Position numbers and translations under genes: made by a program. From a virus (taxonomy: Duplodnaviria; Caudoviricetes), in IMG/VR virus record IMGVR_UViG_3300028832_000118, positions 1 to 64,000 of that record: a DNA stretch of 64,000 nt. One strand, 5' to 3'. This document shows positions 18,885-41,392 of the stretch, piece by piece. The notes below the pieces were generated by a model. The model did no database searches. It saw only the letters and a list, made by a program, of their open reading frames with translations, and had not been told where the DNA came from. Every line of letters starts with the position of its first letter. Positions within the stretch are counted from its first letter, which is position 1.

Positions 18885-21353
18885 CTAAATATTCCAATTT
18901 ACATTATCATTAATTATTAACTTGCTTCGGTTTAAGATTACAACAAATCCATTTCCTTCACCATTACCATCTTTTACGTGTATTCCATCGTACCCCTTTA
19001 ATGCCGCATATAAACCCAATCCCTCTTTTCTGTATTTGTTTTTATAAGAGTCATAAATGGCATGATAGATATTTTTCTTTACATCTAAACTTTTAGTCGG
19101 GTTTCTGAGCTCATCAAGTTCATTGCTTTTAGCTGTACGCTCAGAAGTTAATTTGCTTCGTTTGTCCATAAGTTTCTGCATACCGACATTAGAATTTGAC
19201 AACGCATCCTCTTTTGCTTTTTGCGCAAACTTTACATGCACTCTTTCAAACCAATCATTAAATCTGCTAACCGCATAATTATAATGAGGCAACACGTTAT
19301 TTTTTCTCTTTATAGAGCTTGGCCCATCGTACTGATAATTAGATATTGAAAACTCCTCATCGCTATTAGGCAACGTAAATACATATACACCTTTTTTTTG
19401 AGTTATCGTACCTCCGTTAGCTTTAATAAGTCCAGCCATTTCTTTGCCTACAAAATCATCAAACTTCGGGATGTCCCTATCGCCAAACGCATTTACAGCC
19501 CCCCAATCGGTATTTTCTTCAACAATAGAATAAGCCTTCCAAGCTTTTTCGTCATAATGAATATCCTTATAAGTATCTTCAATTACTTTATTGTTGTAAT
19601 TATTTATACTCTTGTTTATGGCATTTAATTTGCTGTCAATAGCATTCAATTCCCCCTCACACTTATTCACCGCTATCTTATCGGTAGCAACTAAATTCAA
19701 AACCTCATTTTTTATATCGTCATATTCCGCCATAGCGAAATCGTCAGGCAGTGCCATTTTAACAATAGCACCTAATCCAACACCTCCGTCATGCGCATAC
19801 TTTATAGCGTGTTTATACGCTCCAGTTTTATCGTAATTAGATTTAGTTTGATTGTTTATATTATCGTTATTATCATTTATATGAGCGTAAACTCCACCAC
19901 CATATACCCCCTGGGTACCATAGTAGCACTTATCTTGATATAAGAGGGAATCAACCGCCTCCTCAATCGTTATTTTGCCCTTGTTGCTATTATTACGATT
20001 ATCGGGGGAAAGTCCACGCAAAATCTGCACAAATTTACCATCTTTAATTCCCTTATCAACTACATCCCAATATTCTTTATCTGAAACAACCTTACCTCTC
20101 GCATTAAAACCTCTCATCTTACATACCTCAGAAATAGCTAACCAGCCAGTTCCAGGCTCAGTTTTCATAATCTTCATAAATGGGTCATCGGTACGGCATA
20201 TTTTCGTAATCTTATCCCAAACATCGTTCAACTCCTGCTCGGTAAATTCACGATACATATCCTTTTCAGGCATCAATTTTCTTGGTAAAACTTTGCGCTT
20301 TCCAAAATTCTTTCTTGCATCAATATCGTTAATAATATCATCTAAATTGTCAATTCTTTGCGCAATAGTTTTAGACAATTCATCTTCACCAACCTCCTTT
20401 AAGTATCCAACTAAATCACCCTTCTTTTTCCTAATCTCTGCTATCTGCTTTTTAACATCGTCATCAGTCAATACGTCTGCAAGTGATTTATTGGCTATCT
20501 GCATGGACTTGAACGTGGATAAAATATCCCCATCAAATACCTTCTGAGCACCATGCGCACGAAAATTCAAAGTACCTCCGTTATCAACATGTACAACATT
20601 GCCCTTTGAATCAATCAAGCAATTATCGTTATTAGCGTAAGCATCCCAATTAGCAAACAAACAATCAATAATAAACGTGTCTTTGAGTTTTTGATAATCG
20701 TTTGAATTAAATGGACGTGCATTATAAATAAATTTGCTCAGAAGCACAGCAGTACCATTATCATCATAAAGTTGATATTTAGGCACTTTTACGCCAGCAA
20801 TGCTATAAAGCTGATTAGCTAAATATTCATTGATTACGTGGTCATTGTTTGTATTTCTGTTAGTACCCTTCTTTTTTATATACTGATTGCCCTTAACATC
20901 CTCTACCAACTCCGCTCCCGTGCTGCCGCCTATATTTTGTTTAATTACTTTAAGGGATTTCAGGTCAATCGGAAACATATCATTAACCTGCTTTTCTAAA
21001 TCAGCAATTACCTTGGGTGGGAGTGTACTGCCCCTGCCTATATTTTTGTTAGCAACGTGCCAAGCGTACTGCGTTTGGGAGCCTGACTTGGTACGTGACC
21101 AAACATAAAGAACTCCATCAATAACTTTCGTATCTCCTGGCACAATAGCCTTACAAAGCTCCGTATCTTGTTCCAAGCCGTTTAATTGGTCATTTAGGGA
21201 CTTGGAGAGTATAAGCTGGTACATATAATCGTCTTCAAATCCAGTGCGCTGTTTATAGGTATTACAAGCCTTAACCAACATATCGGTAGAAACATAGCCC
21301 TCAGAGTGTCCAAGGGCTATCGTGTCTAATGATTTAAGTAAGTTTTCAGACAT
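18885..21353 (-). CDS. Putative virion-packaged effector: Trp module + PI3K/HipA-like kinase + ADP-ribosyltransferase-like domain
   Basis: Kinase: GGSTGA..YIKK, NEYLANQLY, ANWD..NNDN, VHVDNGG; ART-like: LRG, GVYGGGVY, KYA, GYDGI..VVILN. Confidence 0.65.
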   Translation of the reverse strand: MSENLLKSLDTIALGHSEGYVSTDMLVKACNTYKQRTGFEDDYMYQLILSKSLNDQLNGLEQDTELCKAIVPGDTKVIDGVLYVWSRTKSGSQTQYAWHVANKNIGRGSTLPPKVIADLEKQVNDMFPIDLKSLKVIKQNIGGSTGAELVEDVKGNQYIKKKGTNRNTNNDHVINEYLANQLYSIAGVKVPKYQLYDDNGTAVLLSKFIYNARPFNSNDYQKLKDTFIIDCLFANWDAYANNDNCLIDSKGNVVHVDNGGTLNFRAHGAQKVFDGDILSTFKSMQIANKSLADVLTDDDVKKQIAEIRKKKGDLVGYLKEVGEDELSKTIAQRIDNLDDIINDIDARKNFGKRKVLPRKLMPEKDMYREFTEQELNDVWDKITKICRTDDPFMKIMKTEPGTGWLAISEVCKMRGFNARGKVVSDKEYWDVVDKGIKDGKFVQILRGLSPDNRNNSNKGKITIEEAVDSLLYQDKCYYGTQGVYGGGVYAHINDNNDNINNQTKSNYDKTGAYKHAIKYAHDGGVGLGAIVKMALPDDFAMAEYDDIKNEVLNLVATDKIAVNKCEGELNAIDSKLNAINKSINNYNNKVIEDTYKDIHYDEKAWKAYSIVEENTDWGAVNAFGDRDIPKFDDFVGKEMAGLIKANGGTITQKKGVYVFTLPNSDEEFSISNYQYDGPSSIKRKNNVLPHYNYAVSRFNDWFERVHVKFAQKAKEDALSNSNVGMQKLMDKRSKLTSERTAKSNELDELRNPTKSLDVKKNIYHAIYDSYKNKYRKEGLGLYAALKGYDGIHVKDGNGEGNGFVVILNRSKLIINDNVNWNI

Positions 21354-21373
21354 AATCTTAACTTTTATTGTTT

Positions 21374-23269
21374 TTAGAAAAGCAATAATTTTTCTGCATC
21401 CTCTACGCTCATTTCTCCAAAGTCATCAATAATCGCCTTAACCACTTCGTCATCGTCATCGTTATCTAAAAGAGCATCAACTAATTTTTTACCAAACATC
21501 TTTTCAAACTCCTTTGGATTTTTCTTGTAGCGTGTTTTATAGCGTTTCAAATCATCTTTGGATAAATTTTTTATCACCTCTGCGCTGTTAGCTTTTTCAA
21601 AAATATCGTTTTCACCTTTATTAAGTTCACGCAAAGCCATCTTTTTCCAATCCAATGCTTTTGAATTTCTGCTGCCTCCAAACATTGCATCAAAATCAGC
21701 ATTCATAACGCTCTTTTTCTTTCCCTTAACAGTTCTAACGGCTAAATTCATAAGCTCGGTAAACTTTCTGACCGTAAACTTGAACGGGTCAATCTTTTCT
21801 ACGTTATTTATAATCAGATTGTAAACGCTTTCACGCAACTCTTTTTCTTGTTGTGGCGTAAGTTCTTCATATCTGCCGCCCATTTTTTCATATCTATTCT
21901 CAAGCACTTCAAGATTTTCATTCAACGTAAATTGAATGTCGTTTTTATCTGCACGTGAAAAAATAGCCTTCTTGTCTTCATCGGTAATAAGGTCATCAAA
22001 GGTTTTGTTTGTAATGAATATAAGTTTGCCCGTAAATCTTTCAGGCTTGCCATCCTTGCCAGGAATTAAACGCATTTTAGGATTAGAGTCAGCAATATTT
22101 TTCAACGCACTCTTCAATTTGGTAGCGTTACTAACAAGAGCCTTATCCTTATCATCAAAAATAATTATCTTGCCATTATATTTTCTCAGCGTTTCAAAAA
22201 AATCCTTTTCATCATCAATATCGCTTTCCAAAATAACGGCATCAACGTCATCAGCAGTCGGACTTTCATCTTTATCAGGGTCATAAACGTGCTTCGCATC
22301 ACTTTTAAGCAAATCTAATAAAGCGGTTGTTTTACCTGCACCAGCACCACCAGTAGAAACAAACATTGCTGAACCCTTACCCTGAGGCTGTTCAATAAAA
22401 CCATCAAGCTGAATACGTAATGCAGCTAATTGGTCTTCAGTGTTAAAATAATATGGGTCTTCACGTTTCATTAAATCTAACACCGCATCAAACTGCTGTC
22501 TATCGGTAAGCGTTTCAAAGTTATGAAATGTTTTCTTTACACGATTATCGTTTTTATTCATCCAGCCCGTATCACCCTTCGGGAATAACTGCTTATATTT
22601 TTCAACATCAAAATTGCCAATAGCACTATTGTAAGAGCTTCCGAATAAATCATCTATTTCATTTTTTTCGGGGTGCATCTTTTTCCACTTATCGGCTTCA
22701 TTCTCCCATTTGCCCTTCAAAGTGAAGGTTAATTTAATTTTATCTTCGGGAATGCCACGTCCAATAGCCTCTTCCCAAGCAAGCTGCTGAACATTCGGAT
22801 TTTTAAGGTTAGGATTGTTTATAATATCAATAATTTTTTGGTCATCCCATTGCTTTTTATCTGAAAAAAGTTTACGATAATCCTCACGCTTTTGTGTGAT
22901 TTTTTGCCCTTGTCTATTTTTAGCCTCCCATTCCTCAGGTACTTCATAAGCATAACCATACAAATTTTTAGGTGTATTTCTATACACCACCTTCGGTTTC
23001 GGTGCATCATACGGCTTTTTTACGGGAGCGGCTGGCTGCTGAGTAGCGGATGCAGCAGCAGGAGCGGCATCAGCAGCAGGTTTAGTATCGGTTTGTGCAG
23101 CGGTCGGGGCTGCTGGGGCAGCTGGAGCATTCTTCCCCTTCCAATATTTACCATCTTTACTCTTCCAATCGAATTTACCATTACCAAGGTCAGTCCATCT
23201 CCATAAACCATTAGGGTGTAAATCTCCTACGTTGTGTTGTGCTTTTTCTAAAATCTTATCTTTTGCCAT
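21374..23269 (-). CDS. Trp-module protein with C-terminal P-loop (AAA+/SF3-like) ATPase
   Basis: Walker A GGAGAGKT, Walker B IIIFDD, sensor/motif C IFITN; N-terminal EKA..GDLHPNGLWRWTDLGNGKFDWK. Confidence 0.7.
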   Translation of the reverse strand: MAKDKILEKAQHNVGDLHPNGLWRWTDLGNGKFDWKSKDGKYWKGKNAPAAPAAPTAAQTDTKPAADAAPAAASATQQPAAPVKKPYDAPKPKVVYRNTPKNLYGYAYEVPEEWEAKNRQGQKITQKREDYRKLFSDKKQWDDQKIIDIINNPNLKNPNVQQLAWEEAIGRGIPEDKIKLTFTLKGKWENEADKWKKMHPEKNEIDDLFGSSYNSAIGNFDVEKYKQLFPKGDTGWMNKNDNRVKKTFHNFETLTDRQQFDAVLDLMKREDPYYFNTEDQLAALRIQLDGFIEQPQGKGSAMFVSTGGAGAGKTTALLDLLKSDAKHVYDPDKDESPTADDVDAVILESDIDDEKDFFETLRKYNGKIIIFDDKDKALVSNATKLKSALKNIADSNPKMRLIPGKDGKPERFTGKLIFITNKTFDDLITDEDKKAIFSRADKNDIQFTLNENLEVLENRYEKMGGRYEELTPQQEKELRESVYNLIINNVEKIDPFKFTVRKFTELMNLAVRTVKGKKKSVMNADFDAMFGGSRNSKALDWKKMALRELNKGENDIFEKANSAEVIKNLSKDDLKRYKTRYKKNPKEFEKMFGKKLVDALLDNDDDDEVVKAIIDDFGEMSVEDAEKLLLF

Positions 23270-23273
23270 AATA

Positions 23274-24779
23274 CTAAAAATTTACTTTCTTCTTCAATTC
23301 TTTTATAACTGACGGGGTATTTTCTGATACCTTGTATTTTATTTTTAATTCGGTGACACCTTGTATTTTTAATTTTTTTTCGTCAACTGAAACATTATCA
23401 GGCCAACGCTCTAATAGAATTTTATGAGCTTTTTCAATTCTATCAGATTGTTTATAAGTTTCAGACAATCCACCTTTCTGCTTTCCGTCTTTATTCATTT
23501 TCGTATGTTGTACATAACGAATGAACTTTGCATATTTTAAGCCTAAATACATACACTTCAAAGAATAATCGACATCGCCCTTAATACATAACTCCTCATC
23601 TAAATCAAACTCCAATAGTTTAGGGCTGTTAATTATCGTGACTACTACTACACCTGAATAATTTGTCTTGCTTCCAGGATAGGCTATTTTAGTAACGGGG
23701 TGTTCATTATTCCAATCAAACGCACTTTTGCCAAGAGTACCAATATCAAAATCGGTATTGCATATCTCATCGTTCAGTTCTTCAAAAAATCTCGCAATAT
23801 CATCGTGTTTAGTAAGCGTTGGACCAAGTCTTGGGATACCATCTAAATTATAACAGAAATCTAAAATATCGTCATCCATTATAATAAGGGGATTAAAGCC
23901 GTCATACAGGTTTTTAGTGAAATTAACTACGTATGATACCCCTCTATCGTTATCGGGCAATACAAGCACATTTTTATGTCCGAAATCCTTGTATTTAGCT
24001 TCATCCTGCGGTTCTACTACTGCGGTATAGGGGATGCCGCCTTTATTCAGAATATCAAATGTTTTTCCATTCGGTCGGTCTTTTGATATTACATATATCT
24101 TAATATGTTTCTTTTTACTTACCTTAACATAGAACTCTTCAGGATATAACTTTTGAATATTCCCCTGCTCGTAAAAGAAAAAACCGCTTTGAGTCTTATA
24201 GAATTTTTGAGCAATTTTATATTTAATTGAATTTATCTCCGCATCGGAATTTTCGCAAAGCAATTCCATATTAGACATTTCATTTTCAAACTGCTCTTTT
24301 GCCTTACGCTTATATGAATGTGGAAATTCACGATAAAAGATAAAATTGTCTTCTATCGTGCGTAATAAATAACGTACAAAATAATGGTAGGGATGTCCAA
24401 CACCCATAGGGCATAAAATCATATATCCAAAGTCCATATATCGGTTTACTTTGGATAATAATTCATTCCTCAACTTTTCAATATTTTTTTTACCAATTCT
24501 TTTCTCGTAAAACGGAATTACATTTTCATCTGATAAAACAGCACCCTTCCCAAACTCGTTAAAAAAATCGGTATAGCTTTCACATTTAGTTTTTGTTTTT
24601 AAGCTAATTTGTTTTACTTTGATAAAATTGTACAAATTCTCATCTTCCTTTAATCTAACTTCATTATATTCTACAGTCAAAACCTTTGCACTAAAATCTT
24701 TATCAAAAATAAATTTTGAACAACTTAAAATAGCATCATCACTATGCGGTTGAATTATCAGTACTTTCATAACTCCCAA
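23274..24779 (-). CDS. PIG-L/LmbE-family deacetylase fused to TAGT/GREB1-like GT-A glycosyltransferase
   Basis: N-term IIQPHSDDAIL and GHPYH (PIG-L metal ligands); C-term IYVISKDR, VVEPQD, IMDDDI, KGDVDY..GG. Confidence 0.72.
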   Translation of the reverse strand: MGVMKVLIIQPHSDDAILSCSKFIFDKDFSAKVLTVEYNEVRLKEDENLYNFIKVKQISLKTKTKCESYTDFFNEFGKGAVLSDENVIPFYEKRIGKKNIEKLRNELLSKVNRYMDFGYMILCPMGVGHPYHYFVRYLLRTIEDNFIFYREFPHSYKRKAKEQFENEMSNMELLCENSDAEINSIKYKIAQKFYKTQSGFFFYEQGNIQKLYPEEFYVKVSKKKHIKIYVISKDRPNGKTFDILNKGGIPYTAVVEPQDEAKYKDFGHKNVLVLPDNDRGVSYVVNFTKNLYDGFNPLIIMDDDILDFCYNLDGIPRLGPTLTKHDDIARFFEELNDEICNTDFDIGTLGKSAFDWNNEHPVTKIAYPGSKTNYSGVVVVTIINSPKLLEFDLDEELCIKGDVDYSLKCMYLGLKYAKFIRYVQHTKMNKDGKQKGGLSETYKQSDRIEKAHKILLERWPDNVSVDEKKLKIQGVTELKIKYKVSENTPSVIKELKKKVNF

Positions 24780-25735
24780 TCTCTTAAAACAATATCAGAT
24801 AAACCCTTATTATTCTTCAATACATCATTAGCATACTTCAAAACCTCCTCACTCGGTTTCGGCATACTATCCTGACCGCTTGAATCAGGTAGAAAACCAA
24901 CTCTCATACTTATGTTAGTACATCCGTTACAAACTCCAAAATCACGTCTGTAATCATAAAGCATTATTCTTGCTGCCTGAAAATTAGGGTGATTCCAAAT
25001 TTCATCTATCTTCATTGCCCATATATTTGCAATAGGATATTTGCCACGAAAATCATCACAACATATAGCTACATCCCCCGTCCATCTAAAACTCATTTCA
25101 CGAAACGGCATTGTACAACGCTTATTATTATAAGACATATCCAAAGGAGCTGCACACCCCGAATGATTGACAAGACGCATCGTTGTTTTATTCCCACTCA
25201 TTTGTATTGGAGGTAAAAGCAAAATTCTTTTATCGTGCTTATCAGGAAACATTTTTATACCAGTTTCATACATGACAATTTTGCTTCTATTTTTACGATT
25301 TAATTTATTAACAAAATTCCAATCTCCGTTATCTGAATAACAATCTATCATAATATTATCCATACCAACAGAAAATAATTCATCTACATATTTATCCGCA
25401 TCCTGCGCATGATTAAATCCAAACCCGTTTGAATACATATGAAATGAATTGTTTGGCAAAAGCTCTCTAAAAATAGATACTATTTCAAAAAACTTTTTAT
25501 TTAATGTCGGCTCTCCGTGCATAGCAAATATTATCTTGCTTTTCCACTCCACACGTTTAATTTCAGAAGCAATCTTTTTAGCGGTTTCAACACTCATAAA
25601 ATTCCAAGGTGTCTTTCCGTTTTCCTTAACCCCTCTTAAACCGCAAAATTCACAGCCAAGGTTACACCCCTCAGTAGGTTCAACCTGAATAGAAAATGGA
25701 GGCTGCTGTTTGTAGCCATTTAGAAAATCTTTCAT
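24767..25735 (-). CDS. Radical SAM protein with SPASM/twitch domain
   Basis: CNLGCEFC (CxxxCxxC), HGEPTLN, C-terminal RCTMPF..AICCDD..VCNGC. Confidence 0.9.
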   Translation of the reverse strand: MKDFLNGYKQQPPFSIQVEPTEGCNLGCEFCGLRGVKENGKTPWNFMSVETAKKIASEIKRVEWKSKIIFAMHGEPTLNKKFFEIVSIFRELLPNNSFHMYSNGFGFNHAQDADKYVDELFSVGMDNIMIDCYSDNGDWNFVNKLNRKNRSKIVMYETGIKMFPDKHDKRILLLPPIQMSGNKTTMRLVNHSGCAAPLDMSYNNKRCTMPFREMSFRWTGDVAICCDDFRGKYPIANIWAMKIDEIWNHPNFQAARIMLYDYRRDFGVCNGCTNISMRVGFLPDSSGQDSMPKPSEEVLKYANDVLKNNKGLSDIVLRDWEL

Positions 25736-25757
25736 AATCTTACTTTTTTATTTACGT

Positions 25758-26696
25758 TTATCCTTTACTAACTTTGATGTTCAATTTAACTCCCTGCAAC
25801 TTCTTGTTTTTCGGTACATATTTTTTCAGCTTCGTGAAAGAGCGTGTTTCGCTATCCCAATCGGCATTAGGCTTTTTGTAATTGATAGTGCATCTGCAAT
25901 AAGGATGGGTGGGTGAAATAGTTGGCAACCAATCATCCTTCTTCCTGCCTATATTGTTGCCATTAGCTATTATGTCTTTTAGCTTAAAAACTTTGGGCTC
26001 GCTTACTCCTATATCGTGCGGAGGTTCAAGATAAAGCTCCGCACATTTATCACAAGCATTTTCGTAAACGTCAAAATACACTTCCGCATCTTTGCCGTAT
26101 TTTTTCAATATGCTTTGTGCCCTGCCTGAATTAAACGCTTCATGCGTAAGATAATAGGCAATACGCAACCAATCCACCTCCCAATCCTTGCTGGTCTTGA
26201 CAAGTTGAGAGGCTAACTGCCTCGCTCCTTGTCGGTTTTGTATAGCCTGAACTGTTTTTTGCTTTATTACCTGCGCAACCACTGCCGCCTGCTGCTGATT
26301 ATTTCGCAATAACGAATTTTGAAGGCTGTTACGCATCCTTGCACCTAAATTAGTTATATCGGTATAGGCACGCTGTTTTACAGTCTGTAAGGCGAAATTT
26401 TCAGCCTCCGTTAATGGGACAAAGCCGCCTGAAGCTAAAAACTTTTTGAACTGCGAATAAGTCATATTTTTTGCCCTCGCATCGTTAAGGGCTTCAGACA
26501 ATAAGCCAAAAAGAAAAGCGTGTTCAATCACGCCATTCTTATTCTTAAATTTATTTACATCTATCCCAGCGGCTAAAAGCAACGCTTTATCCTGCTGCGT
26601 CAGGAAATCTGCTCCAAGTTGATTAAAGATAAAGTAAATTTCATAACGCTTCAGGATTGATAAGGTGTCCTGTATTTGTGCAAAGGTAAAAATCAT
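25758..26696 (-). CDS. MuF/SPP1 gp7-like minor head protein
   Basis: THEAFNSGR, ACDKC, PTHPYCRC C-terminal signature. Confidence 0.8.
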   Translation of the reverse strand: MIFTFAQIQDTLSILKRYEIYFIFNQLGADFLTQQDKALLLAAGIDVNKFKNKNGVIEHAFLFGLLSEALNDARAKNMTYSQFKKFLASGGFVPLTEAENFALQTVKQRAYTDITNLGARMRNSLQNSLLRNNQQQAAVVAQVIKQKTVQAIQNRQGARQLASQLVKTSKDWEVDWLRIAYYLTHEAFNSGRAQSILKKYGKDAEVYFDVYENACDKCAELYLEPPHDIGVSEPKVFKLKDIIANGNNIGRKKDDWLPTISPTHPYCRCTINYKKPNADWDSETRSFTKLKKYVPKNKKLQGVKLNIKVSKG

Positions 26697-26698
26697 AA

Positions 26699-28114
26699 TT
26701 AAAAATAGTTTTCAATACAACTATTCAACTTCTCAAAACCATCATACTTTTTGTATTTATTGATATTCAGACCATCAACTATTGTTTCCCAACCATTAGT
26801 AGTAATTTTCAAATCGGGATTTTTCTCAACAAATTCAGCGGCTGCCTGCTTAATTGCTTCAATTTTTTTCTTGCTATCTTCATCATCTAATAATCCACCT
26901 TGGTCTGCTTCAAGCGCGGCAATAACATCCTTTTGTGCGTCATCCTTTCTCTTTCTCAATTCTTTTTCAAATTTAAGCTCCTCCCTTTCTTCATCTTCAT
27001 CGCCAGTGTATTCTTGTAACACTTCAAAATATTCTTCCAAAGAATTTTTCAAATCATCCAACCCATTACATTTTCCATAAATATTAACAAACTCATCATT
27101 TTCTAATTCAATCAAATCTTCGGCAACATCAGCATCAATCTTAAAATGAGGATTATTTTTTGCAAAATCTGAAACAGACTTTCTGAGTTTTTTCAATGCG
27201 TTTATTCCCCTTTTTGTTGTGATAAAATCTCCACCATTCCCCTCTCCGTAATTTTTTACAGCAGACATAATATTCAATGAATTTTTAGGGACATTTTCTT
27301 TTATTTCGTGTATTTTATTCACTGCATCAATGGCAGAAAAATCTCCCCTCCTTTTCAATTCATACGCTGCTGATGCAGTATCAATTGAAAAATTGTAAGG
27401 ACTTTTAACCTCTGACCTTAATTCTTTGGTGCTTTTATCCTTATAATATTCATCAGCATTTTTCTTCACTGATTCAATAAAACTCTTATCCTTTAATGCT
27501 TTCTTTGGTAATGTGCTTGTATCCCAACTCAATGCCATCCTTATGAATTCATCGTCATTCATATTAGCATATTTATTATTTGAGCCATCACCACCATTAT
27601 CTCCGCCACCGCTACTACCTTTATTACCATCTTCTTTCAACCAACCTATTTTCTTGGCTGTCTCTTCTGAAATTCTTTTGCCTACATTAGCAATATTTTT
27701 ACCATCGTAATAAAAATCCAAAGTTTTTTCACTTCCATTAAAATCAGATTTTATCTCAATCTTATTTATATCATTAAAACCATTATCTTTTGCAAATTTC
27801 AAAACCTTATTGATTTGTAACTTTTCATCATCACTCATCTTGTCGTAAATACCTGCCTTTGGATTAGCATCGTGATTTTGTTTGCTTCCACCTTTCTGTT
27901 CATCATTCTGCTTCTTTGAACGAGGCTGCCCAGCGGTAGGCTGCTCCTGCTTGCTCCCTCCGTAATGCTGCCCTACACGATTTAATTTGCGGTTTTCAGC
28001 CGTATCTGCATACACACCGCTACGGGCTTTCTCTATATCAATTCCAAACGATTTTTCTATGTTTTCAATCGTTGCACGTCTTTGAACATTCAATTCTTCT
28101 AAAAAGTTTTCCAT
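26699..28114 (-). CDS. Leader-bearing putative virion cargo protein with internally duplicated C-terminal domain
   Basis: N-term NIEKSFGIDIEKAR leader shared with 29347, 40693, 41392 ORFs. Confidence 0.65.
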   Translation of the reverse strand: MENFLEELNVQRRATIENIEKSFGIDIEKARSGVYADTAENRKLNRVGQHYGGSKQEQPTAGQPRSKKQNDEQKGGSKQNHDANPKAGIYDKMSDDEKLQINKVLKFAKDNGFNDINKIEIKSDFNGSEKTLDFYYDGKNIANVGKRISEETAKKIGWLKEDGNKGSSGGGDNGGDGSNNKYANMNDDEFIRMALSWDTSTLPKKALKDKSFIESVKKNADEYYKDKSTKELRSEVKSPYNFSIDTASAAYELKRRGDFSAIDAVNKIHEIKENVPKNSLNIMSAVKNYGEGNGGDFITTKRGINALKKLRKSVSDFAKNNPHFKIDADVAEDLIELENDEFVNIYGKCNGLDDLKNSLEEYFEVLQEYTGDEDEEREELKFEKELRKRKDDAQKDVIAALEADQGGLLDDEDSKKKIEAIKQAAAEFVEKNPDLKITTNGWETIVDGLNINKYKKYDGFEKLNSCIENYF

Positions 28115-28189
28115 AATTATTATATATTTTATGTTGTTAATAACTCTGTTATATTACAAACGCATTTTTTTCATTAATATATTTTATTT

Positions 28190-29347
28190 TTAATATCCTG
28201 CTGTTTCTACGTTAGAATAAAGTACCATCTTAACATCTTCAGACGGATGAACTGTCGCTGCCGTGCCTAAATTCTTGCCTCCGTCAAAATCCTTTAATCC
28301 ATTATAAAAATCACGTATATTTCGGTTGTTTTTATTATTCAGTATAAGGTGCAAACCTCCGCTGGGTGTTTCGTATTTACAAGCTACTTTAATATTGGCA
28401 GCTTTAAGCCTTCTTTCAGTTTCATCCCATACGTTTACTGTCTTACCATTCGTCATCTTCGCCTGAGTATCTCTCGTGGCGTCTATATCAAGAAGCACTT
28501 TGAAACGCTCGTTTTTCCAAGCTGCACCGCTCTTTGGCATACCATACAAAATCGCTTCTGCATTCTTGACTCTTGGGTCATTCGGATTTTTGCCCTGAGT
28601 AAATTTCGGCAAATAAGCCTCAGTTTGACTCTGACTACGGGTATTGATGCTCATATACGCACGGGCATTATTGTATTGACACAACTTTACAATATGATTT
28701 TTCAATGCCTGCAATTCATCGTAAGAATGAACCAAGTAGTGTTGCAGATACTGAGCCCCTGCGTGATAGCTTCCGTCAGCCCGTGCGCCAGCCTTCCACG
28801 CATCGGCATTAGGTTTATCCTTGTTGTCTTTCCATCGTTTGATAATCTGAATAAAGTAAACATCGTCAGGAGAATTAAACTCCATATAGTCTTTTACCAT
28901 ATCAAAATTATCAACTACCATATTAGATTGGTAGCAAACACCATCTTTCTCTAACTCGGATGAGGTGATAACATCGCCATAAATACTCTGCCCCGTATCT
29001 TGATTGTCGTAATGCAGTCGCCAATTTCCATTCGGGGTGCGTTTCAGCATCATCTTATTTTTATCAGTGTAATTTTTATCAATGCTGGTATAAATGCTAT
29101 TCAGACAAGCCATCCCGTGCTTACCATTTACACCCTTTCCAACAACTACGTTTTTAGGACTAAAAACGTGCCAATCAAATTTTCCAGGGGCATACTCAGT
29201 CCAAACATAGGCTTTACCTTCCCAAATAGTAATATCGCCTACCATTCTCGCTTTTTCAATATCAAGCTCATCGTCAACGCCAAACGACTTCTGCAAGTTT
29301 CGTTCAAGCACCCGTCTATGTCTTTTTAATTCTTCCAAACTATCCAT
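28190..29347 (-). CDS. Leader/Trp-module protein with AEP (primase-polymerase)-like C-terminal domain
   Basis: LQKSFG..DIEKAR..VWTEYAPGKFDW leader; C-term VLLDID and ETPSGGLHLI resemble AEP motifs I and II. Confidence 0.6.
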   Translation of the reverse strand: MDSLEELKRHRRVLERNLQKSFGVDDELDIEKARMVGDITIWEGKAYVWTEYAPGKFDWHVFSPKNVVVGKGVNGKHGMACLNSIYTSIDKNYTDKNKMMLKRTPNGNWRLHYDNQDTGQSIYGDVITSSELEKDGVCYQSNMVVDNFDMVKDYMEFNSPDDVYFIQIIKRWKDNKDKPNADAWKAGARADGSYHAGAQYLQHYLVHSYDELQALKNHIVKLCQYNNARAYMSINTRSQSQTEAYLPKFTQGKNPNDPRVKNAEAILYGMPKSGAAWKNERFKVLLDIDATRDTQAKMTNGKTVNVWDETERRLKAANIKVACKYETPSGGLHLILNNKNNRNIRDFYNGLKDFDGGKNLGTAATVHPSEDVKMVLYSNVETAGY

Positions 29348-29516
29348 TTTTCTCTATTTCTTTATTTTCGTCAACAACTAATTTTGCTATAAACTCAACG
29401 ACAGTAACAAGAGCTTCAGAGGTATTTTTATTCCACTGCCTTATAAATTCAGCCTCATACCCGTTTACTACCTTATACGGGGATTTTATGAAATGTTTAT
29501 CTCTCTTTGCCGCCAT
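29340..29516 (-). CDS. Small hypothetical protein (58 aa, not in ORF track)
   Basis: Manual translation MAAKRDKHFIKSPYKVVNG...EIEKNG* fills the gap exactly. Confidence 0.55.
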   Translation of the reverse strand: MAAKRDKHFIKSPYKVVNGYEAEFIRQWNKNTSEALVTVVEFIAKLVVDENKEIEKNG

Positions 29517-31084: not shown

Positions 31085-31088
31085 AATA

Positions 31089-32942: not shown

Positions 32943-32954
32943 TTTTATAAGGTT

Positions 32955-33212
32955 TTAACGTGAATAATTATAACTCGTTCTTTGGCTCCAAGCAAATTTG
33001 AATTCCATAGAGCCTTCAGCGTACTCACGTTTGGTGACATTCCCCGTAACGCTTTCACGCATAATTCTCCATCCTTCATCCCCCTCGCCTACTCCAAGAG
33101 GAGCCCAACCATAATATTTAACAGATGCAGAAACGACATCTTCAAAAGGTGCTGGCAGATATTCTTCAAAAGTTTTTACCAGCGGTGCTGCAATTTCATT
33201 CATTGTATTCAT
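32955..33212 (-). CDS. Small structural-type hypothetical protein
   Basis: YYGWAP..GWRIMR..FAWSQRTSYNY aromatic pattern; between portal and fibre. Confidence 0.5.
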   Translation of the reverse strand: MNTMNEIAAPLVKTFEEYLPAPFEDVVSASVKYYGWAPLGVGEGDEGWRIMRESVTGNVTKREYAEGSMEFKFAWSQRTSYNYSR

Positions 33213-34948
33213 TTTACATTATTTTTTAGAAAGTTATCAAATGCTTTTACTAATTCATCATCCTCTGCTTTTTCTTCATCCTCTCCATCCTCCTCATATT
33301 CACCTAAATCGTCAAAGGGGTTGTAGTCGCCTCCATCTTCGGTTTCCTCTCCCCCTTCTCCAACAAAGGGATTATCATAACCACCTTCATCTTCGCCTCC
33401 CCCCATCATACCGCCTCCCTGCTGCTGGGCAAAAGCTGCCTGACTCTTTGCCTGCATATAGGTTGGGTTACTCGGTATATCACCAAACTCCAGCGGCTCT
33501 AAATCGTATTTTTCACGCAATTCGTTTATGGTCATAAATGATTGACCCTTCTTTATATCTATATCAAGTTCTTCACTAATAGTTAATCCGTTAAGCCCAA
33601 CAAAACAAAATTCAAATTCGGGGTTTATCTGCTCTACAATATAGCGGTTAATTTTCTTTTGTATAAATTTCAATAACGGATACAATCCTTTATCCTTACT
33701 ATGTTTCAGTCGCTGCTCCTGACTGCTCTCAAACATTCCCGTGCTGCCTGCTGAGCGTGCAATATCCCATCCTATCTCGGTTGGGTCAATAGCGTAAATT
33801 GAGCAAGCTAATTTTATCAGATACTCTAACCAAGCGTTGTACTCCATATCTCGGTTAGATTTTTGCATATCAATCCAATCAACGTCAGCTTCTACTACGG
33901 GTGTTTTCCAAGCCTGCATAACTCCCGTAATCATTGACTGCCACTGCTGACGGAATTGCTGTAACGCTGATTCATTATTCGTACCCTTGACTCTCAAAAA
34001 TCCCTTCGGGGCTGAACCTTGTGAAAAGAAGCGTCTATTGTATTCATCGCTCCACAACATACTCGTTACTACGTTTATCAGCTCTTCCAGCTCTGAGCAT
34101 CCGTACCCGTTAGAATGAATATTAGAGCTTGGGTTTCTGATACCAAAGCAAAGCTCCCAGGGATAAAAGTCATTAACCTTTACACTCTGATAAACCTGCA
34201 CATAGGAGGGATAATAACCATTTATCTTTTTGCCGTATTCAGCCCTATCATCCCAAACCATAGAGCCGTAACGCTTAAAAAATTCATTCTTGTAATCCTC
34301 GCTGAAATATGAGTCTGCAATTCGGAAAGTAGAAGCATCCACCGCCTTAAATGAATCAATCTCACCCCTTCGGTTTCGGATAATCTCAAAGGTCATCTGG
34401 TCGTAAATAAGTGAATCATTAGTTATCTTTCGGATAAAGGTATCAAAATCATCATTATTCCAATTGCTCGTATTTCCGCCATTCATCAAAAAATTAGTTA
34501 TAGCATCAGCAGTTTTTTCATCCTCCTTCGTCATTTTCTGCTCTTTCCCCATCTTGGGTTTCTTTCGGATAATAAAACCTGTTGAATATCTATTTTCCTG
34601 CGGCTCGGCAAAGTCAGCAATTTGATTTTTTCGTGTTTTAATAATAGCGTTAATCACGGGTACTTTGCTCATTTTCAACAGCGTGGTATAGGTGAGTGAA
34701 TACGGCTTATCCTTATAACCCAAATTAGCATTAAATTGTAATGGGTCAATTAAATAAGCCTTCGTTGGTACGCTATTATTCTTATCCATTTCCTGAAGCA
34801 TCTTACCAGCCCTAATAATATCATCGGGGTTGCTGCTCTTCATCGCTTTCTCAATAGTCAGCATCCGCTTCACGTCCAGCTCTGCCTGCGTTTTGGATAT
34901 ATTATCTAATTCCTTTGAATACGACATCTTAATATTTTTTTTACTCAT
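33209..34948 (-). CDS. Portal protein
   Basis: GYGCSELEEL, NRRFFSQGSAPKGFL, WKTPVV, MQKSNRDMEY, MTINELR motifs. Confidence 0.92.
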   Translation of the reverse strand: MSKKNIKMSYSKELDNISKTQAELDVKRMLTIEKAMKSSNPDDIIRAGKMLQEMDKNNSVPTKAYLIDPLQFNANLGYKDKPYSLTYTTLLKMSKVPVINAIIKTRKNQIADFAEPQENRYSTGFIIRKKPKMGKEQKMTKEDEKTADAITNFLMNGGNTSNWNNDDFDTFIRKITNDSLIYDQMTFEIIRNRRGEIDSFKAVDASTFRIADSYFSEDYKNEFFKRYGSMVWDDRAEYGKKINGYYPSYVQVYQSVKVNDFYPWELCFGIRNPSSNIHSNGYGCSELEELINVVTSMLWSDEYNRRFFSQGSAPKGFLRVKGTNNESALQQFRQQWQSMITGVMQAWKTPVVEADVDWIDMQKSNRDMEYNAWLEYLIKLACSIYAIDPTEIGWDIARSAGSTGMFESSQEQRLKHSKDKGLYPLLKFIQKKINRYIVEQINPEFEFCFVGLNGLTISEELDIDIKKGQSFMTINELREKYDLEPLEFGDIPSNPTYMQAKSQAAFAQQQGGGMMGGGEDEGGYDNPFVGEGGEETEDGGDYNPFDDLGEYEEDGEDEEKAEDDELVKAFDNFLKNNVK

Positions 34949-34955
34949 TATATAA

Positions 34956-34986
34956 CTGAAAAAGCCGATTAACGACTAATCGGCTT
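34956..34986 (-). terminator. Intrinsic terminator between methylase and portal
   Basis: Stem AAGCCGATTA/TAATCGGCTT then TTT on minus strand. Confidence 0.7.
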
Positions 34987-35012
34987 GTATGATTGTAAAA
35001 AGTATGAGTTGA

Positions 35013-35849: not shown

Positions 35850-35852
35850 ATT

Positions 35853-36170
35853 CTAATCCTCCACCTTCAAAATTTTGCGTTCAATCTTCTTTTGCATCGT
35901 TCTATCAAATACAACCATTTTTTCGTCTATTCTGCTAACTAAAATAATCGGCTCGCATAAATATTCATAAAGGGATATTTCATTAGTGAATGACGTTATT
36001 TCACCCCCCTCCGCTATCTCTTCAAATAACTTATCAAAATTCTCTATGCTAATACCATCCTCCAGCTCTTTTCGACTAACGTAACAAAGGCGGTTGACGG
36101 ATGTATCAAGCTCGGTCGCTATTATTTGGATGTCAAAATCTAATTCCTGATAATCTTTCAAAAATTTCAT
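35853..36170 (-). CDS. Hypothetical protein
   Basis: 105 aa, translationally coupled to neighbours. Confidence 0.55.
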   Translation of the reverse strand: MKFLKDYQELDFDIQIIATELDTSVNRLCYVSRKELEDGISIENFDKLFEEIAEGGEITSFTNEISLYEYLCEPIILVSRIDEKMVVFDRTMQKKIERKILKVED

Positions 36171-37252: not shown

Positions 37253-37890
37253 TTCATTTTATTAACAAATTCATTTATACCCTTACGATGAATTTCCACA
37301 ATGGCATTCGTTCCCTCCTTGGATAATAAAAACCTTACCTCATCTATACAATCCTGAAACATATTCTCGGTTAGTACGGCTGGGCAGTTTGGAATTTGGC
37401 ACATCGCAAATTTCGCCTCATAGTCATCATCGCCATCACTGCGGTCTTTTCTCGTTTTTTGCCCCAGTGGGGTTAGCACCTCTACAGCGGCATCGTATAA
37501 GCACTGGGCCAGCTTATCAGAATTGTTTTGCCCAGGTGTAGTCCATACTGACCACCCGTATGCCTTTTTCCACTCTTTACCGCTCCCAGCAGCATTATTA
37601 TGTATAGATATGGATAAAGTATGTTTACCAACCTTCTTTGCCTCTTTAACTGCTGCATTTATCCTGCGTCCACGCTCTGCTAATGTTACGTCATTCAATT
37701 CAGGTGTAATAATCTTTACTTCATACCCCTCATCCTTCAATACATCTGCAAGCATTCTAACGATTTCACGACAATACATATATTCACGGAAAGGTAGGGT
37801 TGGTGGTACCTTATTAGCTGACCACGGACTACGCTTTCCAGCTGTATCCTCTCCGTGCCCATTATCAAGACAAATTACTACATTTTTCAT
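37246..37890 (-). CDS. N-acetylmuramoyl-L-alanine amidase (Amidase_3 endolysin)
   Basis: LDNGHG, E of FREY, SIHNNA, AVLTENMF zinc/catalytic motifs. Confidence 0.92.
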   Translation of the reverse strand: MKNVVICLDNGHGEDTAGKRSPWSANKVPPTLPFREYMYCREIVRMLADVLKDEGYEVKIITPELNDVTLAERGRRINAAVKEAKKVGKHTLSISIHNNAAGSGKEWKKAYGWSVWTTPGQNNSDKLAQCLYDAAVEVLTPLGQKTRKDRSDGDDDYEAKFAMCQIPNCPAVLTENMFQDCIDEVRFLLSKEGTNAIVEIHRKGINEFVNKMNW

Positions 37891-37892
37891 AA

Positions 37893-38192
37893 TTATAATT
37901 TTTTCAAGTTTATCCTTATTTTCAACTCCCTACGTGCTTCCACATTCTTTTTAGCTACTAATTTCAAAAGCGTAATTTTATCTAATTTTTTCAAGCTACG
38001 CTTACTCGCCAAAAAGAGTTCAGCCATAGGCTCGTATATATTAACTCTGTTCGCCAAGCCACTATCCCTATCGGAATAATAGCAATGAAGCATGGGACAA
38101 TATTCACTGCCTATTATCGCTAAAACCTTAAACAACTGCCTTCCAAATAGCTTCGGGCATCTTATTACATCACCCTCCTTAAAAAACCTCAT
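37893..38192 (-). CDS. Hypothetical protein
   Basis: 99 aa, FKEGDVIR KOW/SH3-like start. Confidence 0.5.
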   Translation of the reverse strand: MRFFKEGDVIRCPKLFGRQLFKVLAIIGSEYCPMLHCYYSDRDSGLANRVNIYEPMAELFLASKRSLKKLDKITLLKLVAKKNVEARRELKIRINLKKL

Positions 38193-38200
38193 AATGCGTT

Positions 38201-39016
38201 CTATCTATTATAAATTAGTTCATTATCAAAGGTTTGATTATCAAAGATAAAATGCGCCTTACGTGCTAATACGTTAATAGGCATCTGCTTCAGCTTCTCA
38301 TCGTCAAATCCGCAAAATTTACTCTCCCTTACTTTCATCAACTCCCTATTTACGTCAATGACGTGATAGACGGGATAGTGAGAATATCTGATTGTTATAC
38401 TTACGTTAGCAGCTGGGTCATTTACATCCTTCATATCAATATACGTCAAAATGTTCTCGTTAAACACTATCGTATTTTTATCAACTTCATAATCATCCCC
38501 TTCTTTTAACTCTTTTAACGCTGTATTATCGCTAACGAAAAGAGCCATGCGACTAATTTTCAAGGGTTCATAAATCGGATATGCTATCAACTGTCCCTGC
38601 CAAATAACGGGGTTCAAAACCTCGCTATACCACTCTTCCAGCTGCAACAAAATAATCCTATCCATAAACCCAAGTTTATCCGCTCCCTTGGTAGTAATAG
38701 AGGCGGTGCCACGATTTACTTCACTCCAATCCTGATAATGCTTCTTGCTATCCATATGCTGCGCCACTACCCTCGTTTCAGTTCTATCGGTAAACAACCA
38801 GCCTCTTCCAAGACAATTCTTACAAGTGCTCATAGCCTGCCCAGTCGCCTTATCAGTACAAGGGCATCGCATCGCCTTATCAATATACGCATCATAACCA
38901 TGCGCCTGAATTAACTCTTCAAAATCCCTAACTCTCCAACCTATTCTTGGGTCAACCAAGGTAGCTGGAGTTTGATGAATAACGGGTGGATTAGTAACTA
39001 TGCTTTTGCCTTCCAT
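38201..39016 (-). CDS. Neck/head-tail connector protein
   Basis: CPC..TG..CKNCLGRGW zinc motif seen in SPO1/Twort-type neck proteins. Confidence 0.65.
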   Translation of the reverse strand: MEGKSIVTNPPVIHQTPATLVDPRIGWRVRDFEELIQAHGYDAYIDKAMRCPCTDKATGQAMSTCKNCLGRGWLFTDRTETRVVAQHMDSKKHYQDWSEVNRGTASITTKGADKLGFMDRIILLQLEEWYSEVLNPVIWQGQLIAYPIYEPLKISRMALFVSDNTALKELKEGDDYEVDKNTIVFNENILTYIDMKDVNDPAANVSITIRYSHYPVYHVIDVNRELMKVRESKFCGFDDEKLKQMPINVLARKAHFIFDNQTFDNELIYNR

Positions 39017-39017
39017 T

Positions 39018-39818
39018 TTACAAAATTTTATCTAAATACTCACTAACTAAATTTTCAACAATAGTATCAACATCAACCTGCTCATACGCTTTTTCGGCTA
39101 AATGGCGGGCTTCTATGCCTTTATGTATCCAGCTCAATGGGTCTGAATTTTTGCCTGCTCTCCTAAACGTACCATAGGTATTTTGTTGGACGCTGCCATA
39201 GGTAGCAGTCTTTTTAATCATTCCCTCAAAGATAGAATTTTTGTGCCTATATTCTGCATATAAGAGCTGATTATTTTGATAGATAGCCTCCCTTGAACGG
39301 GGTACATCGTGAGGGCTTGGAATTTCTGATTTAAGCAATGGAGAGCCTGCAAACTTACCCTTTATTACATTATAAACACTCATCGGCATTTCAGCCGAAA
39401 AACCAGCTTGTCCCACTATTCCTGGCGTACCTATGCGGAATGGGATAGTAAGATACCAATCTCCACCTGCTGAAATCATATTCCCCTTACGGCTGTATTT
39501 CGGTATAGTGTATTGAACCGCTTGGGATTTTTTGAACCCTTCTTTGAGGTCAAACGGGGCTGCACCCTGCTCAACCATATTTGGTACAACCCCCGTAAGT
39601 ACAATATTTTTTTCTAATTTCCCCTTATCTACGATATTCAGATTTTGCAAGTATTCTGGCAAAGTGGATTTTAATTCCTTCTTTGCCATCGCTTCCCATA
39701 ACGAATAAATTTCACCAGCAACCGCATTTATACAACTTTCGGTCAATACGTCTATTTCGTTTGCCGTAAGTCCAAATTGTTGCTGCAATCTCGTTAAATC
39801 TATCGTTATTGGAGACAT
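39018..39818 (-). CDS. Neck/tail-completion-like protein
   Basis: NMVEQGAAPFDLK, WYLTIPFR, TFRRAG..SWIHKG pattern. Confidence 0.6.
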   Translation of the reverse strand: MSPITIDLTRLQQQFGLTANEIDVLTESCINAVAGEIYSLWEAMAKKELKSTLPEYLQNLNIVDKGKLEKNIVLTGVVPNMVEQGAAPFDLKEGFKKSQAVQYTIPKYSRKGNMISAGGDWYLTIPFRIGTPGIVGQAGFSAEMPMSVYNVIKGKFAGSPLLKSEIPSPHDVPRSREAIYQNNQLLYAEYRHKNSIFEGMIKKTATYGSVQQNTYGTFRRAGKNSDPLSWIHKGIEARHLAEKAYEQVDVDTIVENLVSEYLDKIL

Positions 39819-39821
39819 AAT

Positions 39822-40009
39822 TTACAAATCTTTATATTCATATTTTCCAATTCTAACTTTTTGCCCCAAAAAATTAGTAGTATATTCTTCAAACTCTTCA
39901 ATTTTATCACCCGTAATTAAATAATTACTATTTTTTGCTAATCGGTAGAAAAAGATTTAATTATGTTCTCCTGAACTGATAATCTATGTAATTGTATTAA
40001 ATTTTTCAT
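39822..40009 (-). pseudogene. Leader-only or frameshifted cargo gene remnant
   Basis: ATG at 40009 gives MKNLIQLHRLSVQENIIKSFSTD* (TAG 39938-39940); -1 frame stays open to TAA at 39822. Confidence 0.6.
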
Positions 40010-40015
40010 AAGATT

Positions 40016-40693
40016 TTATTTTGCATAATCCTCTTTTATCATATCAAAATCTACATCAAAACCATAATTCCAATTGGGCGTACTCTTTTTTATTTTGAAA
40101 AACGTATCTTTATCAAGTTTTCCATCTTTAATCAATTTACCAATTTTTTTATAAAATTTAACATCAGCCGCTAATGCCGCATCTTGGTCAAAATTATCGT
40201 CTTTATCATACGCTTTATCATAATCTTTTTCCAATTGAGAAAAAGCAGCTTTCAAGTCATTAACAACCTTATTATCGTCATCGCCATTATCCTTTCTCTC
40301 GTTACCCTCCTTCGGCACAACCATCTTTCCGCCTCCCTTTATATCATAATTGCCATCCTTCTCGTTCCATTTCTCATCGGGGTCAAAACCTAATTCCTCA
40401 AAAAAATCCTCCTTAATTTTCTTACCATTTTTATCGTAAATCTCAACCCAAGCATCCTCATCCTGCAATTGCATACCACGAGGCACTTTTACAGAAGCGG
40501 TTTTTTCTTTCCCCTCTTTTTTCTTAATTACTCTCCAATCAAATTTTCCTGGTGCATATTCAGTCCAAACCTTTTTACCATCGCTGCTAATATCTCCAGC
40601 GACACGGGCTTTTTCAATATCTGCTCCAAAACTCTTTTTCAAACACTCCGCAACCATTCTGCGGTGGCTACTAATAATGTCGTTAATTTCCAT
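40016..40693 (-). CDS. Leader/Trp-module putative cargo protein, unknown acidic payload
   Basis: LKKSFGADIEKARVAGD..VWTEYAPGKFDWRVIKKKEG. Confidence 0.7.
   Translation of the reverse strand: MEINDIISSHRRMVAECLKKSFGADIEKARVAGDISSDGKKVWTEYAPGKFDWRVIKKKEGKEKTASVKVPRGMQLQDEDAWVEIYDKNGKKIKEDFFEELGFDPDEKWNEKDGNYDIKGGGKMVVPKEGNERKDNGDDDNKVVNDLKAAFSQLEKDYDKAYDKDDNFDQDAALAADVKFYKKIGKLIKDGKLDKDTFFKIKKSTPNWNYGFDVDFDMIKEDYAK
40512..40546. repeat. 35 nt exact direct repeat, copy 1
   Basis: CCCTCTTTTTTCTTAATTACTCTCCAATCAAATTT, identical at 41211-41245. Confidence 0.9.
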
Positions 40694-40726
40694 AATGTAT
40701 AAAGTTTTATTATTGTTTTATTTTTA

Positions 40727-41392
40727 TTATATGTACCATCCTACAAGTCTTGCATTTTTTTCACTTATAAAATGCTTGCTTATATTACTAATTACCCTTC
40801 CATCAAGTCTTTTTAATCTCCAACTTCCATTATCATTTTTTTCTAACCGAACATCTTCGGGATTAACTCCACTCTTACCAACTTTATCTAAAACATTTTT
40901 AATAACAGAATTTACCTCCCTCTTTGCTTCTGAACTCAATTTTTCATATTTTTTATCAAAATCAGATTTAGTCTTACCATCTACGTCAGTATATTTATTA
41001 AAATAAATCATATCACCTACTACCTTACCAATTTTTTTATCGCTTACAGAAAGTTTAACATCATCAAATTCCGTAATTTTAACACTTGCGCCAATTATCT
41101 TAACCAAATCATCTTCATTATCGGGATAAGGCATAAAATATTTGAACTGCTTATAACTTGAAGACGTATTTTTCTCAACTCCATACTTTTCATCAATATT
41201 TTCTTTTTCTCCCTCTTTTTTCTTAATTACTCTCCAATCAAATTTATTCGGAGCGTATTCGGTATAAACTAATGTTTTCCCGTTTACCACCTTTGTATCG
41301 CCTGCTACGTGGGCTTTCTCTATATCGCCTTCAAACGATTTTTGAATATTATTTACAACAGCTTTTCTATGTTCTAAAATAAGATTTTCCAT
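40727..41392 (-). CDS. Leader/Trp-module putative cargo protein, unknown payload
   Basis: IQKSFEGDIEKAHVAGD..VYTEYAPNKFDWRVIKKKEG. Confidence 0.7.
   Translation of the reverse strand: MENLILEHRKAVVNNIQKSFEGDIEKAHVAGDTKVVNGKTLVYTEYAPNKFDWRVIKKKEGEKENIDEKYGVEKNTSSSYKQFKYFMPYPDNEDDLVKIIGASVKITEFDDVKLSVSDKKIGKVVGDMIYFNKYTDVDGKTKSDFDKKYEKLSSEAKREVNSVIKNVLDKVGKSGVNPEDVRLEKNDNGSWRLKRLDGRVISNISKHFISEKNARLVGWYI
41211..41245. repeat. 35 nt exact direct repeat, copy 2
   Basis: Identical to 40512-40546. Confidence 0.9.

Follow-up and report, generated by a model that had tools for sequence, protein, structure and literature searches.

What gives unrelated proteins, encoded side by side among the head genes of a gut phage, nearly the same N-terminus? 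The question is raised by the 64,000-nucleotide stretch of DNA analyzed here (the window; positions 1 to 64,000 of IMG/VR virus record IMGVR_UViG_3300028832_000118, Duplodnaviria, Caudoviricetes), in which the region from 18885 to 41392 holds genes that share a short leader, a Trp-rich mini-domain, or both, ahead of variable C-terminal payloads. Based on these shared sequences, on a short lysine motif that recurs in the capsid, portal, and protease, and on a survey of related proteins, we think it probable that the genes encode cargo that resides in the prohead, is trimmed by the S78 head protease, and is delivered with the DNA.

Shared leader and Trp-rich mini-domain

A leader of about 30 amino acids (aa) is common to four minus-strand genes (26699-28114, 28190-29347, 40016-40693, and 40727-41392), and a hidden Markov model (HMM) built from the four scores each at E 1e-17 to 1e-20, values that are partly circular. 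No fifth member was found with this model in the six-frame translation of the 89.5-kb genome, where the next best score was E 0.5. The K-S-F and E-K-A of the leader are two instances of one pattern, a hydrophobic residue (h), any residue, Lys, and a small residue, with the candidate cut after Lys (marked by an arrow). The N-termini of these four genes, and of two others of the set, are as follows.

41315-41392, minus strand: leader of g41392, aa 1-26; candidate cuts K18↓S19 and K26↓A27
40610-40693, minus strand: leader of g40693, aa 1-28; candidate cuts K20↓S21 and K28↓A29
29252-29347, minus strand: leader of g29347, aa 1-32; candidate cuts K20↓S21 and K32↓A33; predicted helix 2-21, then coil
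28028-28114, minus strand: leader of g28114 (gene 26699-28114), aa 1-29; candidate cuts K21↓S22 and K29↓A30
21150-21353, minus strand: propeptide of g21353, aa 1-68; predicted three-helix bundle
23162-23245, minus strand: N-terminus of g23269; no real leader, ILEK9↓A10 and then the Trp module at aa 14-36

A signal-peptide or lipoprotein reading of the leaders was discarded, as they are charged amphipathic helices without a hydrophobic core.

The Trp-rich mini-domain (about 26 aa) occurs in seven copies in six genes, with one copy diverged and one gene (52273-52890) lying outside the span of the original prediction, which had been made from the DNA letters and their open reading frames.

41222-41308, minus strand: Trp module of g41392, aa 29-57
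40523-40603, minus strand: Trp module of g40693, aa 31-57
29159-29242, minus strand: Trp module of g29347, aa 36-63; three predicted strands
21054-21140, minus strand: diverged Trp module of g21353, aa 72-100; three strands, pLDDT (predicted local distance difference test) 72-77
52366-52578, minus strand: tandem pair of Trp modules in the 205-aa protein 52273-52890, which is encoded away from the head genes; no cutting site

The original prediction had described near-identical leaders in four genes, the module in g29347, g40693, g41392, and g23269, and a diverged copy in g21353, and each of these is present. A module HMM finds the first four copies at E 1e-15 to 1e-18. The g21353 copy fails this model (E 0.8) and is nevertheless real, as judged from an alignment of 41 family members in which G80, Y83, T88, and W98 are invariant and D79 is kept in 39, from the relative G005, which has a canonical KFDW at the same position, and from an AlphaFold2 (AF2) model with three strands at aa 75-100; AF2 likewise gives three strands, at low confidence, for the module of g29347. 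The same residues of leader and module are frequently written with different codons, so that the conservation is at the level of protein. An HMM comparison of leader and module had also been proposed as a check, and in it the shared regions align significantly and the payloads of the module family prove to be diverse.

The module matched nothing in Pfam even at E<=10 and no named Atlas cluster, a PHROG search of g40693 and g41392 returned no family, and a tblastn search with a near-consensus module found no carrier among 50,697 deposited phage records. The 52273-52890 protein (minus strand) is Lys/Ala-rich and histone-like, with two tandem modules in its 205 aa, and an h-x-K-A site is absent from it. 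In relatives of this class the N-terminal region is a different one, accompanied by a Lys-rich linker and a C-terminal module, and their genes are not near head genes. The module is an independent mini-domain and not merely part of a packaging tag, as this Lys-rich protein, encoded away from the head genes, carries it with no site. Our best guess is that it may tether a protein to DNA or to a common partner.

A lysine motif in capsid, portal, and protease

The IEKA that ends the leaders is a case of the short motif (I/L/V/F)-x-K-(A/S), which is also found in the portal, the protease-scaffold, and the capsid protein.

15575-17059, minus strand: SPO1/phi812-type (Herelle type) major capsid protein; LNK35↓A36 kept in five relatives and in SPO1 Gp6.1
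17085-18503, minus strand: S78 prohead protease fused to a scaffold-like C-terminal half; adjoins the capsid gene
33209-34948, minus strand: portal protein; IEKA at aa 32-35, ELVKA at aa 566-569

The assignment of the protease-scaffold rests on Pfam Peptidase_S78 (E 9.5e-8) and the PHROG head maturation protease (E 2.7e-40), and that of the capsid protein on PDB matches to SPO1 Gp6.1 (E 3e-75) and the phi812 capsid (E 1e-25). In the proteome of 28.5k aa, [ILVM]EKA occurs nine times against 2.9 expected from shuffling (P 0.003), and six of the nine lie within the first 45 aa of a protein (P 0.001). The nine are made up of five cargo N-termini, the portal (aa 32), the protease-scaffold (aa 240 and 249), and one glycosyltransferase. 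For the looser [IL]xKA, nine head or cargo proteins with 15% of the residues account for 16 of the 26 occurrences (P 8e-8), and capsid, protease, and portal alone account for eight.

Conservation follows the same residues. In the protease-scaffold linker, a six-genome alignment shows an invariant I-x-K-A three times (aa 214-217, 240-243, and 323-326) with the second position varying freely, which is the pattern expected of a protease site and would not be that of a fold element; a further LEKA lies at aa 249-252. In five relatives (complete related genomes, 94-124 kb) the portal keeps h-E-K-A at aa 26-46 and the capsid keeps LNKALA, here LNKA at aa 33-36, and in these two proteins as in the protease-scaffold the P2 residue varies while the motif is kept. 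The g21353 family (41 homologues) has K51-S52 and K68-A69 invariant and K7-A/S8 and K28-A29 near-invariant within an otherwise variable N-terminus, with K68-A69 four residues upstream of the GD (GQ in most relatives) of the module.

A known cut lies at the equivalent capsid position. The phi812 capsid protein is present in the PDB both as a full-length chain of 463 aa and as a chain of 439 aa that begins at the Ser after VVK, so that maturation, as read from these chain sequences, takes place by cleavage of VVK↓SF. This site aligns within about four residues of LNK35↓A36 of the window's capsid protein, and SPO1 Gp6.1 also has LNKAL. The precedent of a Lys-Ser cut in a capsid protein, cited originally for the A511 type, thus holds for the Kayvirus phi812. 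In SJC03, a cultured Bacteroides phage, the matching positions of capsid protein and portal read LQK↓A and IEK↓S, respectively. A complex prediction of the protease-scaffold with the first 62 residues of g40693 scored 0.00, which speaks neither for nor against binding.

Several further occurrences were noted. The only [ILVM]EKA outside head and cargo proteins is in a deacetylase-TAGT glycosyltransferase fusion (23274-24779, minus strand) within the head cluster, as RIEKAH (aa 445-450 of 498, counting from the ATG at 24770); it could be chance or a real C-terminal processing site. The ELVKA of the portal lies thirteen residues before its C-terminus, and homologues of the ATPase in relatives have h-EKAE-x-hhh near their C-termini, like the first protease-scaffold site.

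The wider family

A profile search with the module yielded 577 clusters (50% identity) at E<=1e-3 among 1.84 billion representatives; architecture, leaders, and payloads were counted in the best 150 of these 577. The module is near the N-terminus in 133 of the 150, and in 119 an h-x-K-[AGS] lies no more than eight residues upstream. At least four unrelated types of leader stand ahead of the same site, and in homologues of the ATPase just 2-10 residues do. A C-terminal module was found in 17 proteins, mostly after Lys-rich linkers, and nearly all of these are without the site. What stays constant across the wider family is therefore the cutting site with the Trp module and not the leader.

The sites are concentrated in the leaders. 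Counted over 127 representatives, the leaders (5,222 aa) contain 248 sites, or 4.75 per 100 aa compared with 0.31 per 100 in the payloads, a density 15 times that of the payloads and nine times the shuffled expectation (27.7 sites). Most leaders carry two sites, and the last one is strongly constrained, with Glu at P2 in 108 of 125, Ala at P1' in 122 of 125, and a distance of four residues to GD in 104 of 125. The proteins P0154, P0182, P0214, and others have a DUF6496 ahead of an alternative type of leader (..EAEEILKAAGTE..FEKAH) and the module, an arrangement from which it follows that extra N-terminal domains can precede the site.

The site also goes with the head neighborhood. In the window, the leader and module genes described originally flank the portal gene, some of them between it and the terminase and others between it and the protease, in company with a gene for a minor head protein.

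41431-43143: large terminase
25758-26696, minus strand: probable MuF-like minor head protein, 312 aa, stand-alone here; weak Pfam and PHROG matches

The MuF assignment made originally is probable: PHROGs give a weak match (E 8e-4), and the Pfam match (E 0.0016) is below threshold. The viral contigs that were fetched contain 79 different module proteins, of which 67 combine a site with a head marker no more than 5 kb away, and the eight without a site have no head marker nearby (Fisher P 7e-8), although all eight are one family and the test is weaker than its P suggests. In some relatives MuF, site, module, and payload are fused in one polypeptide (842 aa in L056 and 553 aa in L073, L074, and L102).

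Payloads

The C-terminal parts of the window's genes were compared with each other and with known families and structures.

40727-41221, minus strand: payload of g41392; unassigned
40016-40522, minus strand: payload of g40693; unassigned, acidic
28190-29158, minus strand: payload of g29347; possibly archaeo-eukaryotic primase (AEP)/primase-like
21374-23161, minus strand: payload of g23269; Walker A GAGKT
18885-21053, minus strand: payload of g21353; protein-kinase-like fold at about aa 130-350 and a C-terminal domain

The C-termini had been called unrelated, and by BLAST they are, except that g28114 and g41392 share a stretch of 73 aa (33% identity, E 8e-5), which may be a second shared small domain. 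By eye, a hairpin-like NG-W-R-L stretch just after the Trp module of g29347 is similar to it.

Of the functions suggested originally, that of a kinase stands at the level of fold, while ADP-ribosyltransferase (ART) and primase-like remain leads. The AF2 model of g21353 (pLDDT 84.6) has, as modeled, a bilobal protein-kinase-like fold, with 70 Foldseek hits in the PDB at E<=1e-3, those listed being protein kinases or kinase-fold enzymes; phmmer searches of g21353 and g29347 against PDB sequences gave no match. The ART-PolyVal lead at the C-terminus of g21353 is weak (Atlas feature score 0.82; a MuF-fused structural neighbor at a template modeling (TM) score of 0.37), and a Pfam scan of its 41 homologues found no ART family (PF18760) and a weak HipA_C in five. 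For g29347 the longest structural match is the primase RepB' (3h20_A; Z 6.9, root-mean-square deviation 3.9, 130 residues), a middling score, and Foldseek gave none at E<=1e-3 for its model. Besides its Walker A, g23269 has a weak STAND-NTPase match. After its leader, g28114 has no Trp module and instead a GVYAD..NRKLNRVG motif, which is also found after a VNK↓A site in SJC03_200 (L107:14500-16158; 552 aa), beside MuF, in SJC03, a cultured phage of B. thetaiotaomicron; the motif may be a second kind of retained N-terminal element. In the best 150 of the wider family the payloads form 60 BLAST clusters, few with a Pfam family: M90/ATLF-like zincin, NUDIX, CotH kinase, AAA, and Tudor.

A hypothetical mechanism

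We now put forward a mechanism that we propose for the leader- and site-bearing proteins as a class. Prohead proteases act inside assembled proheads, as established for HK97 and T4, and conserved sites for such a protease on the cargo would therefore make these proteins prohead residents that are trimmed in maturation. The proteins would be built into the prohead, brought there by the helical leader or by a fused MuF, and trimmed by the S78 prohead protease of the phage. The protease would most likely cut after Lys in (I/L/V/F)-x-K↓(A/S/G), at one to four sites per leader. The last site, almost without exception h-E-K↓A, is placed four residues ahead of GD, with which the three-stranded Trp domain of about 26 aa begins. 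Cutting would take the leader off in small pieces and leave a mature protein that begins with the Trp domain, followed by the variable payload: in the window an enzyme of kinase fold, a P-loop ATPase, an enzyme that is possibly AEP-like, and unassigned proteins, and in relatives a zincin peptidase, NUDIX, and others. We propose that the mature proteins remain in the head and enter the host with the DNA, like Alt and the internal proteins of T4.

The original prediction had the leader address the proteins to the prohead, be cut at K↓S or K↓A, and so deliver interchangeable enzymes. Its core, that is head-associated proteins with a protease-cleaved N-terminus and interchangeable payloads, we consider supported at the sequence level by several independent lines, although the prediction as a whole is supported only in part: the Lys-Ser precedent in phi812, the recurrence of the motif in head proteins, the concentration of sites in leaders, and the finding that only site-bearing module proteins are in head modules. 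The weakest step is the leader as the address, because the same site comes after leaders of at least four unrelated types and, in the ATPase, after hardly any leader. Semi-tryptic starts at K↓S and K↓A, proposed originally as the readout of cleavage, are unsuitable for the purpose because trypsin also cuts after Lys.

Several points weigh against the mechanism as a whole. Leaders differ from one part of the family to another, and the ATPase has hardly any, so that the leader may not be an address. The motif is short, helices rich in Glu, Lys, and Ala are common, and [IL]xKA is not enriched proteome-wide (26 observed, 22 expected), its placement alone being unusual; moreover, the nine focus proteins of the [IL]xKA test were chosen partly for having the motif. 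Leaders and loci that are homologous cannot count as independent samples, and one family alone is without the site. AF2 confidence is low for the leader and module of g29347.

Alternative explanations

The first of these points leads to the alternative that fares best, although we regard it as unlikely: the Trp mini-domain and not the leader would set the destination, by binding phage DNA, the capsid interior, or a common partner, and the leader would be a disposable propeptide that, for example, keeps an enzyme quiet or soluble until assembly. Such a role would account for the constancy of site and module behind unrelated leaders, for the ATPase homologues with hardly any leader, for the internal site and module of the MuF fusions, and for the presence of the module beside Lys-rich, histone-like linkers in proteins without a site. 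It is at odds with g28114 and its relatives, which have the leader and site but no module, and with the module proteins lacking a site, which are not encoded near head genes, so that the module alone is no mark of head genes; nor does any fold or family match assign the module a function. In a bolder version, which is speculative and for which we see only a small chance, the module would be a new domain for traveling with the genome, a small hairpin unit that binds DNA or a partner and so fastens any protein to the phage chromosome, and it would serve an early Lys-rich chromatin-like protein as well as the head cargo matured by the protease. If this were true, site and module would form a portable two-part tag for bringing arbitrary proteins into the capsids of gut Bacteroidota phages.

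That paralogous virion or assembly proteins share an ordinary N-terminal domain that is not cleaved, with EKA a by-product of helical, charged sequence, we consider improbable. The shortness of the motif and its near-expected overall frequency fit this explanation, but it does not account for Lys and Ala being invariant among variable flanks in the portal, protease-scaffold, capsid, and kinase family, for the 15-fold density of sites in leaders over payloads, for a capsid site at the position of the known phi812 cut, or for unrelated leaders that terminate in the same site. Least probable of all, to our mind, is that the proteins are processed in the prohead and then lost as scaffold-like helpers, or act only inside the producing cell with no delivery to the next host: fragments of scaffold and protease do exit the head after cleavage (established for HK97 and T4) and some payloads are small, acidic, and unassigned, but a kinase fold, a P-loop ATPase, and the zincin peptidase and NUDIX of relatives fit host-directed enzymes better than scaffolds, the sites are confined to the N-terminus with the payloads spared, and MuF fusions are a recognized mark of delivered effectors (PMC5512222).

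Comparison with known systems

The proposed system of cleaved and delivered cargo works like the capsid-targeting family of T4 but is not a member of it. In T4 the capsid-targeting sequence of IPI-III and Alt is an N-terminal tag that is removed by the prohead protease and is transferable to other proteins, and the head carries unrelated proteins, some of them enzymes, that are then injected (PMC9026906, PMC3012670). The protease of the window's phage is of the S78 type and not gp21-like, and the conserved sites have Lys at P1, hence the exclusion from the T4 type: the predicted cut is after Lys, whereas gp21 of T4 cuts after Glu in L/I-x-E. In addition, the leader is longer than the T4 tag, helical, and has several sites, the Trp mini-domain is predicted to be retained on the mature protein, and the tags have no sequence similarity.

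In the giant phages phiKZ and SPN3US, the prohead protease cuts the N-terminal propeptides of many head-internal proteins at a short motif, and proteins are ejected into the host as a bolus (PMC10052503, PMC7411985, PMC5694885). Those are jumbo phages with T4-like proteases, whereas here the genomes are of 90-125 kb and the capsid is SPO1-like, and they are not known to have a leader family common to their proteins or a Trp module. Their cut motif is a small residue-x-Glu.

Closer in gene setting are the MuF polyvalent or polymorphic effectors, in which variable effector domains encoded in the head module are thought to be packaged and injected and which are reported to include, in Bacteroidetes phages and prophages, a distinct kinase domain that also occurs stand-alone (Iyer et al., 2017, PMC5512222). 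The fusions of MuF to site, module, and payload in some relatives resemble them. In the window, however, the payloads are separate genes that share leader, site, and module and not one long polypeptide, the MuF-like protein stands alone, processing is assigned to the prohead protease and not to a built-in peptidase, and the Trp module is not among the Pfam families. The proposed cargo differs from the T4, giant-phage, and MuF systems in protease type, motif, and retained mini-domain.

Capsid maturation in Kayvirus and other Herelleviridae is alike in its homologous capsid protein, its S78 protease, and the Lys before a small residue at the (here predicted) cut. We know of no leader-tagged cargo family described in Gram-positive Herelleviridae, phages that were not searched for one here. 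Finally, the Dar antirestriction proteins of phage P1 are several unrelated proteins that enter the head in a set order, are in some cases processed, and are injected to protect the DNA (PMC9024508, PMC5512222). Their incorporation is via a chain of protein partners, in contrast to the tag proposed here. To our knowledge, they have no common cleavable leader or shared mini-domain.

If the proposed mechanism is right, the rule of a leader, then h-x-K↓A/S, then a Trp domain would flag virion-delivered proteins in widespread, uncultured Bacteroidota phages and would turn hundreds of "hypothetical" genes into ranked candidates for early host-takeover or anti-defense effectors. It also predicts which specificity SPO1-type prohead proteases would have outside Gram-positive phages, a prediction testable in cultured Bacteroides phages such as SJC03, and it would offer a compact tag for loading chosen proteins into phage heads in microbiome work.

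Genome setting and neighboring genes

The source contig has 89,580 bases, of which the final 127 repeat the first 127, and because of this repeat at both ends the genome (about 89.45 kb) was judged to be complete, its assembly being circular or terminally redundant. The minus strand encodes nearly all of the genes. A megablast search of a 24-kb region against the 50,697 deposited phage records found no match. The phage is a gut-type Bacteroidota phage, and the best deposited relatives of its capsid protein are from the Bacteroides phages SJC03 and DAC (44% identity), followed by Chryseobacterium and Bacillus phages; a placement in the "Flandersviridae" was weighed and dropped, as nothing tested gave a link. 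Genes for a radical-SAM/SPASM enzyme (24767-25735, minus strand) and for the TAGT-type glycosyltransferase (23274-24779, minus strand) are located centrally in the head module, with the MuF-like gene on one side and the cargo ATPase on the other, and several relatives have this order too.

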